From the IMG/VR virus record IMGVR_UViG_2585427795_000004: DNA of 8,078 bases, one strand, 5' to 3'. The notes under the pieces are model-generated. The model was given only the letters and a program-made list of their open reading frames with translations. It made no database searches and was not told the DNA's origin. A program made the position numbers and the translations under genes. Origin of the DNA: a virus (Duplodnaviria > Heunggongvirae > Uroviricota > Caudoviricetes). Shown here one piece after another: positions 2,023 through 6,927 of the stretch. Numbering within the stretch: position 1 is the stretch's first letter; each line of letters begins with the position of its first letter.

Positions 2023-2096
2023 AGGTCAGACCAGATTGAAACGATAAAAACGATCTTGCAAACTACTCGCCCTCATATCATATGGAAGGTTTATCT

Positions 2097-2507
2097 ATGG
2101 ATCAGGTAGTCATTTTTAAACAAATATTTGATAAAGTTCGAAACGATTTAAACTATCAATGGTTTTATTCTGAGCTAAAACGTCACAATGTCTCACATTA
2201 CATTTACTATTTAGCCACAGAGAATGTTCACATTGTATTAAAAAATGATAATACAGTGTTATTAAAGGGCCTAAAAAACATTGTGTCTGTCAAATTTTCA
2301 AAGGATAGGCATCTTATAGAAACGACCTCTAATAAGCTGAAATCCAGAGAGATCACATTTCAGGAATACAGAAGAAACCTTGCTAAAGCAGGAGTTTTTC
2401 GGTGGGTTACAAATATCCACGAACAAAAAAGATATTACTATACCTTTGATAATTCATTACTCTTTACTGAAAACATACAGAGCACATCACAAATGTTTCC
2501 ACACTAA
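2097..2507 (+). CDS. DUF1398-family prophage protein (YdfO/YbcV-like); AT-rich moron
   Basis: 136-aa product from the ATG at 2097 ([13 protein letters not shown]...), which has a GGAAGG Shine-Dalgarno 8 nt upstream. The track's ATG at 2082 has none. Similarity to Qin-prophage YdfO is recalled from memory. The gene is visibly AT-rich and rich in ATA/AGA codons compared with its neighbours. Confidence 0.65.
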
Positions 2508-2826: not shown

Positions 2827-3291
2827 TTATCTGAGGCATTGCTCACGAATGTATAGCTGTGCCCCTTCCAGTTGTTTTTGCATTATTGTCAGTCGCGCTC
2901 TGAGGGTGAAATAATCCCGCTCAGCGGTGTCTTCCAGTCGGGGGGCGGCTGCATTATCCACGCCGGAGGCGGCGGTGCCTTCACGCACGGACGAACAGAC
3001 TGCCTTGATGCGCAACCGACGATGACCAGCGGCAACATCATCACGCAAAGCATCATTTTCAGCCTTCGCATCAGCTAACTCCTTCAGGTATTTTGCATCG
3101 AGTGCAGCAACATCACGCTGGCGTATCTGCATGTCAGTAATGATTGCGGTCGCCTGGTTGAGTTTTTCCGTCACATTATCGCGTTGCGCTTTGTAGGTAA
3201 TGGCATTATCACGGTAATGATTAACAGCCCATGACAGGCAGACGATGATGCAGATAACCAGAGCATAAATAATCGCGGCAACTCTGCTCAC
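2827..3291 (-). CDS. Rz: Rz i-spanin (inner-membrane spanin subunit)
   Basis: Translation from the GTG at 3291 ([38 protein letters not shown]...[31 protein letters not shown]) is near-identical to lambda Rz as I recall it. The GTG overlaps the endolysin TGA stop (GTGA). The track's TTG start at 3306 is probably an over-extension. Confidence 0.9.
2889..3071 (-). CDS. Rz1: Rz1 o-spanin (outer-membrane lipoprotein), embedded in the +1 frame of Rz
   Basis: 60 aa, [20 protein letters not shown]... with lipobox VGC and a proline-rich mature region ([14 protein letters not shown]). Near-identical to lambda Rz1 and wholly embedded in Rz, as in lambda. Confidence 0.85.
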
Positions 3292-3821
3292 TGCTCTATC
3301 CCCCAACAGGCTAATGCGCTCTCCTGATCACGACGAATAACCTGACCGTAACAGTTATTTGAACGAAGGCGGCAATCGCGCCCCCTGTCCTTAATCCACC
3401 AGCGAATCGCCTCGCAGGCACCTTTACGATCACCTGCATTCAGCCGCTTATAAAATGTCGACGGAAAACACTTACCGGGGCCAATGTTATAGGGACAAAA
3501 TGACGCGATACCCGCTTTCTGGGGTTCGGTCAGCGGCACTTTAATATTGCGCTCCACCCATGCCAGCGCCTTATCGCGTTCAATGGCATTAACCTGAGCG
3601 CATTTTTCCTTCGTCAGTTTCATGCCCGGAATAACAGGTTTACCATCCACCATCGTGGCACCACGACAGATGGTCCATATGCCGGAACCATCGCGGTATG
3701 CCGTAGTATGGTTACCCTCTTTTTCATCCAGAAACTGGTCAAGTATTTGAGGAGCAGACGCGCCTGCAGCAATCAGCGCCAGAACCGCAGCTGACAGGCC
3801 GTATTTGATTTTTGCGCTCAT
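3288..3821 (-). CDS. SAR endolysin (phage lysozyme, T4-lysozyme/GH24-like) with N-terminal signal-anchor-release domain
   Basis: 177 aa. N-terminus [15 protein letters not shown] is a Gly/Ala-rich weakly hydrophobic SAR-type segment, followed by the lysozyme E...D...T catalytic motif ([19 protein letters not shown]). Resembles the Qin/21-type lysozyme (recalled). Confidence 0.9.
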
Positions 3822-3876
3822 GGATATTTATCAGGATGCTACCAATGAAAGATACTGGAAAGCCAACTGCAAAAAG

Positions 3877-4191
3877 CTAACAACCTGTAATCGAGTTATC
3901 AGAACTGTTAATTTTTATGGTATACCGCGCCTCTGAACAGGGGCGCGTTTCTGGCAACAGCTCGTCCCCTTCACATAACCCGGCAGCAACATCCAGGAAG
4001 ACCTGTCTGATGCTCCTTCTGGCTGCTGCCTCATAAAACTCCAGCGCGGCACCTTCAACACGGTCCAGCGAGATGTCCAGGTCAAAAATTTCACCGTCAA
4101 AGCGTTTTTTGTCCCGTAACGCTAAAGTTACCGTAACTTTATTCTCAAAATTGCGGATCCCTTTCACAATCAGTTCATATTTTTGAGTCAT
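3877..4191 (-). CDS. YdfR-like small protein (DUF1327 family) located between holin and endolysin
   Basis: 104-aa ORF; ATG at 4191 with GGGGAGAG Shine-Dalgarno about 8 nt upstream. Position between pinholin and endolysin matches the Qin prophage essQ-ydfR-rrrQ arrangement. Family assignment is from memory and context. Confidence 0.6.
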   Translation of the reverse strand: MTQKYELIVKGIRNFENKVTVTLALRDKKRFDGEIFDLDISLDRVEGAALEFYEAAARRSIRQVFLDVAAGLCEGDELLPETRPCSEARYTIKINSSDNSITGC

Positions 4192-4195
4192 TGAA

Positions 4196-4411
4196 TTACT
4201 CTCCCCGTGCAGCCTTACGCTTGTCTTCTTTAATCTTGAAATAAAGGTTTGTCAGGTACGTCAGCAGGCCAAATACCAGGCTACCCAGCACACCTATTGC
4301 TGCCCACTGTGAGGGCGTGACTTTATCGAGCAGCTGTAAAAACCAGTAGCCAGCACTGCCTGCGGAGGTGCCGTAGGCAATGCCTGTTGAAATTTTGTCC
4401 ATGGATTTCAT
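4196..4411 (-). CDS. Class II pinholin (phage 21 S21-like), dual-start antiholin/holin
   Basis: [71 protein letters not shown] closely matches S21 as recalled. GGAGGTGAGG sits immediately upstream of the ATG at 4411, with a second in-frame Met three codons in (M-K-S-M). The track's start at 4468 is an unsupported N-terminal extension. Pairing with a SAR endolysin is the expected pinholin system. Confidence 0.9.
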
Positions 4412-4445
4412 AGCCTCACCTCCGCACGGAACGGATGGCATAGTT

Positions 4446-4473
4446 ATTATGTGTAGGCTTCCAGACACATCAA
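4446..4473 (-). promoter_or_regulatory. Weak candidate sigma70 promoter upstream of the holin
   Basis: Minus strand: TTGATG (complement of 4468-4473), 16-bp spacer, CATAAT (complement of 4446-4451), about 35 nt upstream of the holin start. Sequence-only, and the region is AT-rich, so it could be chance. Confidence 0.25.
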
Positions 4474-4510
4474 TCGGAGCCTTAATTGATATATATGCTG
4501 GAGACGATGC

Positions 4511-4537
4511 AATATAAAAAGCTCGCCGTAGCGAGCT
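4511..4537 (-). terminator. Rho-independent terminator downstream of the lipoprotein cassette
   Basis: Minus-strand RNA AGCUCGC-UACG-GCGAGCU followed by UUUUAUAUU: a 7-bp stem with 5 GC pairs, 4-nt loop and U-tract. Lies about 125 bp downstream of the TAG stop at 4663 and upstream of the holin. Confidence 0.6.
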
Positions 4538-4662
4538 AATAAAATGTATTTCTCTGATATTATGTTTATTTGTATTAGCTCAGACTTGACATCACAGGTT
4601 TCGTATATAGAACATCATCAAATCTGTCAGTTTGCTATGAATGAGATATAGTAATTGAAGAG

Positions 4663-5058
4663 CTAACCTCGCATGTCAAAGCCAGATTTCTGAAAATCTC
4701 TGTAGACTTCCGGATTGTTGAAGGCCGGAAATTTGGCTTTATGAGCTGCGGACTTTATCGCTTCGCAATAGGCTTTATCACCGTTACTGGTAGATATTTT
4801 TAACGCCGTGCCATCCTGAGAGAATTCCATATGCAACCTGCATTTTTTCCCTTTCCAGTTATGCGGCTCATCAAGTTTGGCATTAATTGCAGCTCTGATT
4901 CCCCGCGCTTGCGCCCCCCATTCATCCTGATCATCCCAGCGTCCTGAACTGCAACTACCTGTAGCAGTAGTTTTGTGGCAATCTGAAGGGTGTAAAGGTG
5001 TGCATCCCGCAACAAAACCGACCCAAAAAGTCAACATAACGATTTTCTTTAATCCCAC
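4663..5058 (-). CDS. Lipoprotein with a C-terminal domain homologous to TolA domain III (paralog 1)
   Basis: GTG start at 5058 with GAGGAG 6 nt upstream. Signal peptide MGLKKIVMLTFWVGFVAGC has lipobox VAGC and +2 Thr. C-terminal region ...GKKCRLHMEFSQDGTALKISTSNGDKAYCEAIKSAAHKAKFPAFNNPEVYRDFQ... shares the GKxCxLxM...GD..C...PEVY..F pattern and both cysteines with paralog 2 and with TolA-III. Confidence 0.7.
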   Translation of the reverse strand: MGLKKIVMLTFWVGFVAGCTPLHPSDCHKTTATGSCSSGRWDDQDEWGAQARGIRAAINAKLDEPHNWKGKKCRLHMEFSQDGTALKISTSNGDKAYCEAIKSAAHKAKFPAFNNPEVYRDFQKSGFDMRG

Positions 5059-5208
5059 TTCTTGCTCCTCAATCCATTAAAATCTCAGCAATAGTAGTTG
5101 TTACGTCCGCCACTGGCTCAGAGCTGACTATCCGCTAGATTTAGCTCAGTGCCGTAGTTGTGTCAGAACAAACCTAAGCCGAAACCGTTTATTACAAAAC
5201 AATAAATA

Positions 5209-5637
5209 TCAGGGTTTAAAATCCAGCACCCCATTTTGAAATACTTTATATACTTCCGGCGAAGGGGGGGCAGGTATATCAGCATTCTTTATCGCATTCA
5301 TCGCTTCACGACATAAATCGAGGTCTCCACTTTCTCTTTTAACCTCCAGTAGAAGGCCATTCGGGGCCATATGCATTCTCAGTGTACACTCTTTTCCTGA
5401 ATACTTACTCGCATCCCCGAACTGTTTTTCGATGGCGCTCTTGATTTGATGGGCATACAGACGGATATCCTCACTAACATCAGAAGTACGTTCAGATGAA
5501 CTCACATACTGTGTCTCTATTGCTTTATCGGAGTAATATGATGTACGGTCATGATAATTTGTCGATACAGCATCAGTGCACCCGATAATAATCCCACTAA
5601 TAATCAACGTAAGAATTGATGCGCTACGAAAACCCAT
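5209..5637 (-). CDS. Lipoprotein with a C-terminal domain homologous to TolA domain III (paralog 2)
   Basis: ATG at 5637 with GAGGA upstream. Signal peptide MGFRSASILTLIISGIIIGC has lipobox IIGC and +2 Thr. C-terminus ...YAHQIKSAIEKQFGDASKYSGKECTLRMHMAPNGLLLEVKRESGDLDLCREAMNAIKNADIPAPPSPEVYKVFQNGVLDFKP aligns residue-by-residue with E. coli TolA's C-terminus as I recall it (...YAGQIKSAIESKFYDASSYAGKTCTLRIKLAPDGMLLDIKPEGGDPALCQAALAAAKLAKIPKPPSQAVYEVFKNAPLDFKP), including the disulfide cysteines. Confidence 0.8.
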   Translation of the reverse strand: MGFRSASILTLIISGIIIGCTDAVSTNYHDRTSYYSDKAIETQYVSSSERTSDVSEDIRLYAHQIKSAIEKQFGDASKYSGKECTLRMHMAPNGLLLEVKRESGDLDLCREAMNAIKNADIPAPPSPEVYKVFQNGVLDFKP

Positions 5638-5666
5638 TTTTCCTCACATATGTCATATAGTAAAGG

Positions 5667-5696
5667 ATTATATATACCGTTGTTTTGGACGCTCAA
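5667..5696 (-). promoter_or_regulatory. Candidate sigma70 promoter for the lipoprotein cassette
   Basis: Minus strand: TTGAGC (complement of 5691-5696), 18-bp spacer, perfect TATAAT (complement of 5667-5672), about 30 nt upstream of the paralog-2 ATG. Sequence-only prediction. Confidence 0.4.
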
Positions 5697-6170
5697 ACAG
5701 CGAATCAGATCAAATAAAACGCACATTTGTTAACATTTACACAAAGTCTGCGTGGGATATTCTGAAAGAATATCCATAATGTGGAGAGAATCTATTGAAG
5801 TGCATGGTGCCGGGGGCCTCCCGGTGAATTCAGTACCAGCACCTGAATCCACGATTATCCCATATACCTACTCGCTGATTGCCCCTCCGCACAGGGGGAT
5901 TCACCATGCCAGTTTCTTTTAACAAACTCCCCGCAAACCAGAGAACAGTCAACCGCCTGAATTGTGAAGTATTTAAAAATTTCTCCCGCTAACTGATACC
6001 CGGCTAACAGTCTGGCGTTTTCTTTTTCAGCAACGGGAAAGCAACAACTACCACCCCCGCCACCAGCACACCGTCAGCCAGCACTGACATTATCCGGCTG
6101 CTGCAATGCCATTCACAAAAACAGTAAGCAATCACTTTTTACCGTAACAGGTGATAATCCAGATATGTAT

Positions 6171-6524
6171 CTACCCCAGATGAGTAATCCGAAGTTCATC
6201 CATACCACAGGTCCTGGCTATTCTGTTGTACTCCTGAACAAGAGCAAATAATTCTGAATTAGCAACCATGAACTCATCGCAAACCCTCTGTATAGCATCA
6301 CTATTCAGAATAATAACGTCTCTTCCCGAAAGACGATCAGGAGCACAGAACAAAACTGTCAAACGGCTGAAGGCCTTTGCTCGTGCTGCATTGACTATAT
6401 CAATACGCTGCCTAAGGATGAAACACCCCGACGCCTCATCAATATTCACTCTACCCACACCATATGAATGATAAATATTTAATGCTGAAAAAACCATTAG
6501 ACCGTATAACAAACACTCAATCAA
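6171..6524 (-). CDS. Hypothetical protein, no family recognised
   Basis: 354-nt ORF, but the 6524 start is TTG with no convincing Shine-Dalgarno, and the first in-frame ATG (codon 10) also lacks one. An overlapping plus-strand ORF (6268..6471) exists. It may be a real moron, a gene remnant or non-coding. Confidence 0.3.
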   Translation of the reverse strand: MIECLLYGLMVFSALNIYHSYGVGRVNIDEASGCFILRQRIDIVNAARAKAFSRLTVLFCAPDRLSGRDVIILNSDAIQRVCDEFMVANSELFALVQEYNRIARTCGMDELRITHLG

Positions 6525-6634
6525 TACTTAACAGAACTTTTATTTTTGACAAACATATAATGTTTTCAACAATATCCTGAGCCAGGTATATTCCAGTATA
6601 AGGCTCTGCCGGAAGGAATCTGGAAGAATGAATA

Positions 6635-6711
6635 TGGCGCGCTGTACTGGATTCGAACCAGTGACCGATTGCTTAGAAGGCAATTGCTCTGTCCGGCTGA
6701 GCTAACAACGC
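6635..6711 (-). tRNA. tRNA-Arg (anticodon UCU, reads AGA/AGG), phage-encoded
   Basis: 77-nt minus-strand cloverleaf GCGTTGT-TA-GCTC-AGCCGGACA-GAGC-A-ATTGC-CTTCTAA-GCAAT-CGGTC-ACTGG-TTCGAAT-CCAGT-ACAGCGC-G-CCA. All four stems pair, T-loop is TTCGAAT, and CCA is encoded. Confidence 0.85.
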
Positions 6712-6745
6712 TGAATACCGATAATGGACCGCCATCGGGGACCCG

Positions 6746-6757
6746 CCCCCCCCCCCC
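6746..6757. repeat. Homopolymeric C12 (G12 on the minus strand) tract in the inter-tRNA spacer
   Basis: Directly counted: 12 consecutive C at 6746-6757. Confidence 0.9.
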
Positions 6758-6818
6758 GCACCAACAACCCTGTTATCGTGTCGTCTGCTCTTCCTGATAA
6801 GCTCATGGCGGTTTGTGA

Positions 6819-6894
6819 TGGTGGCCCTTGCTGGATTTGAACCAGCGACCTGGCGATTATGAGTCGCTCGCTCTCACCACTGAGCTAAAGGACC
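6819..6894 (-). tRNA. tRNA-Ile2 (anticodon CAU, ileX/ileZ-like, reads AUA after lysidine modification); formally Ile/Met ambiguous from the anticodon alone
   Basis: 76-nt minus-strand cloverleaf GGTCCTTTAGCTCAGTGGTGAGAGCGAGCGACTCATAATCGCCAGGTCGCTGGTTCAAATCCAGCAAGGGCCACCA, closely resembling E. coli ileX as recalled. Anticodon loop is CTCATAA and CCA is encoded. Confidence 0.85.
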
Positions 6895-6927
6895 GGGTGA
6901 TCCTACCCACGTAATATGGACACAGGC

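Follow-up and report, generated by a model that had tools for sequence, protein, structure and literature searches.

What are two small lipoprotein genes doing just upstream of the holin of a lambdoid prophage, and when would they be expressed? The question is raised by the IMG/VR record IMGVR_UViG_2585427795_000004 (Caudoviricetes), from which we analysed a stretch of 8,078 nt (hereafter the window) holding the late region of a lambdoid prophage (mEp460/Qin-like) on the minus strand. The initial annotation had described the gene pair, here called paralog 2 and paralog 1 in the order of their transcription, as an autonomous moron with its own promoter and terminator, expressed in the lysogen. 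Morons of the lambda type, such as bor and lom, follow the Juhala/Hendrix definition: they are extra DNA between conserved genes, laid out as promoter, gene and terminator, and Bor is an outer-membrane lipoprotein made by the lysogen. Our own reading, to which we give as a whole a probability of about 0.5, is that the pair constitutes a cargo module of two single-gene units, transcribed in the lysogen and encoding lipoproteins that act as decoys of a domain of the host protein TolA. The module shows ordinary moron architecture in the well-known Q-to-holin cargo slot of lambdoid prophages, Q being the late antiterminator. That architecture and that slot were known already, and what is new is the decoy idea. 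The module is thus a moron by architecture, whose autonomy and lysogen expression are predicted from sequence. The features on which the argument turns are as follows.

5938-5748, minus strand: small RNA (sRNA) gene of the STnc100 family (Rfam RF02076)
5696-5667, minus strand: promoter-like site TTGAGC-18-TATAAT, found by consensus scan
5637-5209, minus strand: paralog 2, a 142-residue lipoprotein precursor, with ATG start and GAGGAA Shine-Dalgarno sequence
5208-5059, minus strand: intergenic spacer of 150 nt
5058-4663, minus strand: paralog 1, a 131-residue lipoprotein precursor, with GTG start
4537-4511, minus strand: intrinsic terminator, a hairpin followed by a U-tract
4411-4196, minus strand: S21-type (class II) holin, the first lysis gene (PF04971, 1.8e-35)

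We begin with the nature of the two proteins. In paralog 2, a signal peptide that ends in the lipobox IIGC (Cys20, with Thr at position +2) and a linker of ~35 residues precede a TolA domain III (TolAIII; residues 55-142). The domain matches PF06519 at 2.4e-23 and TolA chains of the Protein Data Bank (PDB) at 5e-28, is 59% identical to residues 334-421 of E. coli TolA, and is modelled by AlphaFold2 (AF2) at a predicted local distance difference (pLDDT) score of ~90, the linker being of low confidence and read as disordered. Paralog 1, which shares 29% identity with paralog 2, consists of a signal peptide ending in VAGC (Cys19, again with Thr at +2), a Cys-containing linker of 30-35 residues and a diverged TolAIII, detected by PF06519 at 1.3e-14 and by solved TolAIII structures at 5e-9. 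Its AF2 model, in which the domain again has a pLDDT of ~90, superposes on E. coli TolAIII (PDB 3QDP) at 1.1 A, with a template-modelling (TM) score of 0.92 in Foldseek. The lipobox cysteine is invariant in the 19-20 aligned homologues, as are the disulfide cysteines, and we infer for both proteins lipidation and, from the Thr at +2, sorting to the outer membrane. Both genes are under purifying selection: the ratio of nonsynonymous to synonymous substitution rates (dN/dS) is 0.26-0.33 for paralog 2 and 0.11 for paralog 1 against its plasmid homologues. Both proteins belong to phrog_5772, a family of unknown function.

In paralog 2, conservation extends to the surfaces that matter for the proposed function. 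With reference to the ligand-binding sites defined on TolAIII (PMC4339652, PMC7391070), paralog 2 retains the strand that receives colicin A (LLEVKR, against 375-LLDIKP-380 in TolA) as well as the strand shared by the filamentous-phage gene 3 protein (g3p), colicin N and TolB (VLDFKP against PLDFKP). The same positions read ALKIST and GFDMRG in paralog 1. The paralogs share this domain with TolA and are not TolA orthologues. Full-length TolA models are matched at profile positions 265-362 of 362 and 293-386 of 387 alone, and neither gene has a membrane anchor, a helical domain II or a tol-pal cluster context. Compared with the host domain (PF06519; PDB 1TOL, 3QDP/3QDR, 2X9A and 1S62), the module proteins thus agree in fold, in the disulfide and, for paralog 2, in near-intact ligand strands; they differ in their predicted lipid anchor, probably in the outer membrane, and in lying outside the tol-pal operon. 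Since they have neither the inner-membrane anchor nor domain II, they would have no link to TolQR or to the proton-motive force.

How might such proteins serve a prophage? In the lysogen, the sigma-70 site at 5696-5667 would drive low-level transcription of the pair, to which read-in from the STnc100 gene, its terminator having been replaced, may add. The transcript would stop at 4537-4511, keeping the holin silent; after induction, Q-modified polymerase would pass the terminator, and both genes would also form part of the late transcript. The proteins would be lipidated and sorted via the Thr at +2 to the inner leaflet of the outer membrane, where a lipid-anchored copy would meet incoming ligands first. 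Their TolA-like domains would then act as decoys for group A colicins, for g3p of filamentous phages and possibly for TolB, the outcome being colicin tolerance and entry exclusion. Free TolAIII, when exported, reportedly gave a tol-like phenotype with colicin tolerance in the 1993 work of Levengood-Freyermuth. TolAIII is the periplasmic hub without whose capture group A colicins and g3p cannot enter; both bind by strand addition, and the strands they use are those retained in paralog 2 (PMC4339652, PMC7391070). Its binding to TolB is weak (dissociation constant, Kd, 40-200 uM; PMC7391070), whereas colicin N is bound at ~1 uM (PMC4339652), so that a modest dose of decoy could trap invaders at little cost to the Tol-Pal system.

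The relatives of the two genes bear on this proposal, particularly those carried by plasmids. Homologues of paralog 2 were found in Escherichia and Shigella alone, and a scan of species-representative genomes returned one Shigella locus only. Paralog 1 is part of a wider family at 78-89% identity, which includes chromosomal genes of Enterobacter kobei and Citrobacter that stand singly amid genes of metabolism. On conjugative plasmids of the I-complex (IncK2/Z and IncI1/B/O; MPF_I), some 600 plasmids in all, its relatives stand directly after the relaxase gene nikB, and on pO157 the homologue adjoins a nikB remnant. The I-complex and pO157 homologues are 88% identical to paralog 1 and have the same lipobox (L006 4003-4434, L007 4965-5396 and L187-L189 3465-3896); the GTG start of paralog 1 is ATG in these plasmid genes. 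The DNA common to plasmids and window ends 3 nt past the stop codon, and the terminator is therefore not common to both. A third, distinct TolAIII lipoprotein with lipobox LITAC (L008 3812-4246) occurs on ~300 IncFIB/IncFII plasmids of Klebsiella. That Klebsiella gene adjoins one for a thioredoxin-fold protein.

The existence of family members on plasmids and, as monocistronic genes, on chromosomes points to a use outside lytic growth. The pili of these conjugative plasmids are, moreover, the receptors of TolA-dependent filamentous phages, and the presence of homologues on such plasmids fits an exclusion role; the complex of the If1 g3p with TolAIII is available as PDB 2X9A. We therefore put forward, tentatively and with less assurance than the reading of the module itself, a broader claim: that mobile elements of Enterobacteriaceae bear outer-membrane-anchored TolAIII decoys which intercept the TolA-binding epitopes of group A colicins and g3p on their arrival in the periplasm, and that these form a new class of entry-exclusion and colicin-tolerance factors. 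The cargo is common, being found in ~14% of complete E. coli genomes and, through its relatives, on ~600 plasmids including pO157, and it is routinely mislabelled 'tolA' or 'tolA pseudogene'. If the proteins are decoys, they would be a factor, widespread yet so far unrecognised, in how bacteria compete and how susceptible they are to phages, and conjugative plasmids would by this means offset the phage susceptibility caused by their own pili.

The description of the pair as a module rests on junctions that can be located on both sides. In a comparison with 5,426 complete E. coli genomes, two classes of match bracket the upstream edge at 5801-5828. Matches with another upstream context run from the holin to 5828 and then diverge, as in PD4, where the antiterminator region is another one and the tRNAs are missing. 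Matches with other cargo share 5801-6897 and end at 5801, as in FXCREC043, where iraM, a DUF1737 remnant and another holin allele follow. In L004 the Q-tRNA-DUF3927-STnc100 upstream region is that of the window, with iraM and DUF1737 in place of the module. Of 80 prophage copies taken from viral contigs, 40 break off upstream at 5828, and most of the others do so at the tRNA-Ile gene (6895-6897). The downstream junction lies at ~4440-4450 on the minus strand, ~30-40 nt upstream of the holin ATG: with window positions 4196-4700 as query, those essD matches that come without the module stop at positions 231, 243 and 255 of it (similarity is lost at 4426-4450). Taken together, the two junctions define a module of ~1350 bp (~4450-5800), in which 105 nt separate the promoter-like site from one end and ~65 nt separate the terminator from the other. 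No downstream junction was found that parts the module from its holin allele at high identity; the E. coli copies are always linked, and this allele accompanies the module in every copy examined.

The full-length module is present in 772 of the 5,426 genomes (14%) and, at 99.9% identity, in phage mEp460_ev081. A comparative study of uropathogenic E. coli (UPEC) reported a phage-related strain-specific region of 1,355 bp annotated 'TolA protein, hypothetical protein' (PMC6854850). The GC content of 4450-5800 is 0.412, compared with 0.498 for the lysis genes at 2827-4411, a moderate difference. That the slot is the one in which phages encoding Shiga toxin (Stx) carry stx was borne out by the Stx2 prophage matches H57 and H59, which have tRNA-Ile/Arg/Arg and then stx2AB here. 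In STEC17-190 (L005), the tRNAs are followed directly by a paralog-2-like gene, and STnc100 copies and a gene for a SASA-family carbohydrate esterase lie downstream of it. Lineages of this kind, which carry one gene only, together with a chimera discussed below, indicate that recombination has brought together two genes that can also occur apart. The earlier description of the cassette as a moron accordingly holds for a discrete, exchangeable, AT-richer module with its own terminator, and has to be amended in that the module is a composite of two separable single-gene units.

The upstream edge coincides with a recognisable element. The STnc100 gene at 5938-5748 scores 110 bits in cmscan against a gathering score of 47, and the module begins inside its 3' part. 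The mosaic junction at 5801-5828 (minus strand) is the conserved STnc100 core CACCGGGAGGCnCCCGGCACCATGC, common to prophages that differ on both sides of it. This core appears to be a homologous-recombination joint for the exchange of cargo in the stx slot. According to published work, STnc100 copies of Stx phages follow stx2 at a distance of 75 nt (PMC12370729), and the family is tied to the PasD sRNAs of this region (bioRxiv 10.64898/2026.05.13.724894).

The downstream half of the layout is unambiguous. The hairpin AGCTCGC-UACG-GCGAGCU at 4537-4520 has a 7-bp stem with 5 G-C pairs, a UACG loop and a folding energy of -13 kcal/mol, and is followed by UUUUAUAUU to 4511. With strict criteria (7 perfect pairs, at least 5 of them G-C, and a UUUU tail) and dinucleotide shuffles for comparison, it is the only terminator on either strand of the 8-kb window, against an expectation of 0.01 per window and ~1.5e-4 for the 250-nt interval. 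It is a bona fide intrinsic terminator ahead of the holin, far beyond chance, and it is identical in L182 and L186. The hairpin and U-tract that the initial annotation saw after paralog 1 are thus present, at a distance from the holin that has to be corrected from ~125 to 99 nt, because the holin gene opens with ATG 4411 (a dual start, MKSMDK; 216 nt with the stop codon) and not with GTG 4468. It was equally right that no terminator separates the two genes: the 150-nt spacer at 5208-5059 shows neither a terminator-like site nor, on this strand, a promoter-like one, and with a fold z-score of -0.68 its structure is not unusual.

The upstream half is less straightforward. A near-consensus promoter-like site does precede paralog 2 on the minus strand, with -35 TTGAGC at 5696-5691, a spacer of 18 nt and -10 TATAAT at 5672-5667, for a consensus score of 10/12. 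Transcription would start at ~5660 and leave a 5' untranslated region of ~22 nt. The window has three promoter-like sites of 10/12, of which this one alone has a perfect -10. Conservation of the site says little, since most copies are nearly identical. The 160 loci from viral contigs, at 99-100% identity, were uninformative on this point, and informative diverged variants came only from a search of contigs encoding related proteins. Of the loci fetched, 149 have TATAAT as the -10 and 4 have TGTAAT.

Several observations weigh against our reading, and most concern this site. Firstly, the match is statistically modest: sites of at least 10/12 number 1.9 per shuffled window against the 3 observed, and ~0.012 are expected in any given 100-nt interval of one strand, so that the placement upstream of paralog 2 exceeds chance only modestly and is suggestive, not compelling. 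Secondly, the widespread L179-type lineage, whose upstream region is the same as that of the window and which has no paralog 1, carries TGTAAT (the critical A-11 replaced by G; A5671G in window numbering) and retains an intact gene under selection; its protein (P0127) is 91% identical and present in 90 blocks of the contig collection, with dN/dS of 0.26 and dS of 0.17. Thirdly, the L005-type gene (67% identical) follows tRNA-Arg with an unrelated upstream region of 278 nt that contains just a 9/12 site. The promoter region is missing from the L182 context as well, where the gene again comes after tRNA-Arg and its upstream sequence is unrelated to that of the window. There the paralog 2 allele (311-739) is a chimera, L005-like over its 5' two-thirds and window-like over its 3' third, and is followed by paralog 1, terminator and holin identical to those of the window; recombination has therefore occurred within the paralog 2 gene. 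Fourthly, the genes sit in the late operon in late orientation, like stx2. Beyond expression, neither paralog has a match in PADLOC-DB 2.0, and overproduced exported TolAIII makes cells leaky, so that a role in lysis or vesicle formation is equally compatible with the nature of the proteins. Because of the L179, L005 and L182 lineages, the site is neither universal nor strictly conserved, and it remains a reasonable promoter candidate for the window lineage. The claim of an own promoter has a correctly placed 10/12 site in its favour, and is weakened by the modest significance of that site, by TGTAAT in the L179 lineage and by its absence from L005 and L182.

The points on the promoter, together with late-gene position and orientation and the use of the slot by stx2AB, are also the case for a purely late cargo. 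On that view transcription comes essentially from pR' by Q-modified polymerase, the promoter match is weak or due to chance, and the terminator serves to limit leak. We judge this unlikely, though it fares no worse than any other alternative. The -10 is perfect, its geometry to the Shine-Dalgarno sequence and ATG is right and its upstream flank is AT-rich; a strong terminator stands immediately ahead of the holin; and members of the family exist on plasmids and, as monocistronic genes, on chromosomes. In the window, furthermore, an IS3 copy stands between the late region and whatever lies upstream.

Our reading of the proteins as decoys has to be set against a second possibility, namely that the TolAIII lipoproteins inhibit Tol-Pal in a dominant-negative manner and thereby loosen the outer membrane, their bulk late synthesis aiding lysis and release or the formation of vesicles. 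The genes lie immediately upstream of a holin-endolysin-spanin cassette, and the TolB-binding C-terminal strand is kept in paralog 2. An exported TolAIII construct was employed by McKay et al. for the release of periplasmic protein (PMC6195910, whose reference list includes Levengood-Freyermuth 1993 and Wan & Baneyx 1998). On the other hand, the plasmid and single chromosomal relatives have no lysis genes nearby, the lysis cassette of the window already contains a complete spanin pair, the affinity of TolAIII for TolB is weak, and a terminator separates the genes from the cassette. We regard an inhibitor of this kind as improbable to about the same degree as purely late expression.

A third alternative retains expression in the lysogen and moves its source: transcription would come mainly from the promoter of the STnc100 gene, running on since the module replaced the sRNA terminator. 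The window and L004 are identical as far as the STnc100 core, after which L004 has a GC-rich terminator and the window has module-specific sequence. Copies of STnc100 in L004 and L005 end in the canonical GC-rich terminator AGCCCCTCTCCGGAGGGGCT followed by Ts, whereas the 3' end in the window is an AT-rich hairpin GGAUAUUCU-UUC-AGAAUAUCC followed by CACGCAG (~5775-5755, -10.8 kcal/mol) and has no U-tract. Because the module replaced the terminator by a hairpin of this kind, upstream transcripts may read into the lipoprotein genes, which offers a second, predicted route to lysogen expression. STnc100 copies are transcribed in uninduced EDL933 at ~100-1900 reads per kilobase per million (RPKM), one of them being verified by Northern blot (PMC5331693), and in contexts of the PD4 and L179 types, too, the gene is preceded by this sRNA 3' region. 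As the main source, however, this route seems distinctly less probable than either alternative above. No confident placement of the sRNA promoter emerged from eight aligned copies, and the best -35 candidate is weakened in the window (TTCTCT, against TTGTCT in L004). Termination at the AT-rich hairpin, or processing there, might also still occur, and in the L005 and L182 lineages no sRNA precedes the gene.

Two minor observations concern sRNAs. STEC17-190 has a stx-less Stx-like prophage (L005 1107-4057) with five STnc100 copies, four of them clustered, downstream of a single TolA-like lipoprotein gene. The sRNA-17 of E. coli K1 RS218, said to be in a mEp460-like prophage, was considered as an element of the window and is not in it.

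Public annotation suggests one further alternative. RefSeq, through its Prokaryotic Genome Annotation Pipeline (PGAP), in most cases gives paralog 2 the label 'tolA, incomplete, missing N-terminus' and the status of a pseudogene (L002 6760-7020; L003 5001-5261), and it starts paralog 1 at an internal ATG, giving 124 residues; the lipoprotein nature of both genes is thereby hidden. Paralog 2 exceeds the TIGR02794 cut-off through domain III alone, which explains the 'tolA' mislabel, and the pseudogene call is an artefact. That the genes are functionless, decaying fragments of a captured tolA, as this call in most genomes and the confinement of the match to the C-terminal third of TolA models might imply, is highly improbable in view of intact open reading frames (ORFs) that each have a start, Shine-Dalgarno sequence, signal peptide and lipobox, lipobox and disulfide cysteines invariant across diverged members, dN/dS well below one in both genes, a dedicated phage family (phrog_5772) and near-identical copies in 772 genomes. 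A full-text literature search found nothing on these proteins; a remark on 'TolA' for EDL933_2012 in PMC11125564 concerns a tail-fibre gene and is irrelevant here.

Comparison with known systems helps to delimit what is proposed. The module resembles the bor and lom morons in its insertion between conserved genes, its layout with a candidate promoter and a terminator, its being AT-richer than its neighbours and its predicted outer-membrane lipoproteins, and it would work in the manner of such conversion genes. It departs from them in lying upstream of the holin, co-oriented with the late operon, in having two genes and unrelated proteins, and in that its lysogen expression is predicted. With the stx operon it shares the slot, downstream of Q and tRNA-Ile/Arg and upstream of the holin, and an STnc100 copy at the flank; it carries a lipoprotein pair and not an AB5 toxin, and the sRNA gene, which has lost its own terminator, precedes the cargo.

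Functionally, the closest precedents are found among phage-encoded exclusion proteins. Llp of T5 and Cor of phi80, N15 and HK022 are small phage outer-membrane lipoproteins that block other phages or colicins by binding and inactivating FhuA. The module proteins, as predicted, are also small phage-encoded outer-membrane lipoproteins; Llp and Cor act on the receptor FhuA, whereas mimicry of a periplasmic co-receptor is proposed here, and there is no sequence similarity. In cells infected by the filamentous phages of the Ff group, interaction of the N1 domain of g3p with TolAIII blocks superinfection and confers colicin tolerance. The same interaction is proposed for the module with the roles reversed: in Ff immunity host TolA is saturated by the invader's ligand, and with the module it is the invader's ligand that would be saturated, by a copy of TolA. 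Finally, the plasmid TolAIII lipoproteins, of which those of the I-complex and pO157 are the close relatives of paralog 1 described above and those of Klebsiella have the same architecture, are single genes on plasmid backbones with different flanks.

The remainder of the window places the module in its prophage. The other features are the following.

6898 to beyond 8078: IS3 copy, with orfB at 7794-6928 on the minus strand
6894-6819, minus strand: tRNA-Ile(CAU)
6712-6818, minus strand: degenerate tRNA-Arg remnant between two intact tRNAs, with a G12 homopolymer at 6746-6757
6711-6635, minus strand: tRNA-Arg(UCU)
6524-6171, minus strand: phage ORF of 117 residues with TTG start, matching phrog_2873 at 2e-69
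6135-6004, minus strand: DUF3927 gene of 43 residues, matching phrog_1470
after the holin, minus strand: DUF1327/YdfR gene, endolysin, and Rz with Rz1

The module had initially been placed between the tRNAs and the holin. It does occupy the slot from Q and the tRNAs to the holin, without abutting the tRNAs: the 117-residue ORF, the DUF3927 gene and the STnc100 gene intervene. Apart from the IS3 copy, the arrangement of the window recurs in the mEp460_ev081 phage record (99.9% identity) and in a prophage of strain O177:H21, which adjoins ydfJ, a site that we take to be the Qin position. The IS3 copy is inserted 3 bp upstream of tRNA-Ile and cuts the late region off from whatever lay upstream; its junction with tRNA-Ile was found in none of the 5,426 complete E. 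coli genomes. In L002, the corresponding prophage, the antiterminator gene ends ~140 nt before tRNA-Ile, and by analogy Q and pR' should lie in the region upstream of the window's IS3.

Some smaller points may be recorded. The homopolymer of the tRNA-Arg remnant is G12 in the window and G11 in strain O177:H21. RefSeq has no annotation of the 117-residue ORF (6524-6171) in L002. PHROGs labels phrog_1470, the DUF3927 protein, 'TciB-like inhibition of cell division or resistance to colicin', which makes its gene a second possibly colicin-related one within the Q-to-holin cargo slot. Just past Rz, on the opposite strand, a DUF1398 gene (2082-2507, plus strand) lies in an island of 31% GC (1950-2550) and looks like further inserted cargo.

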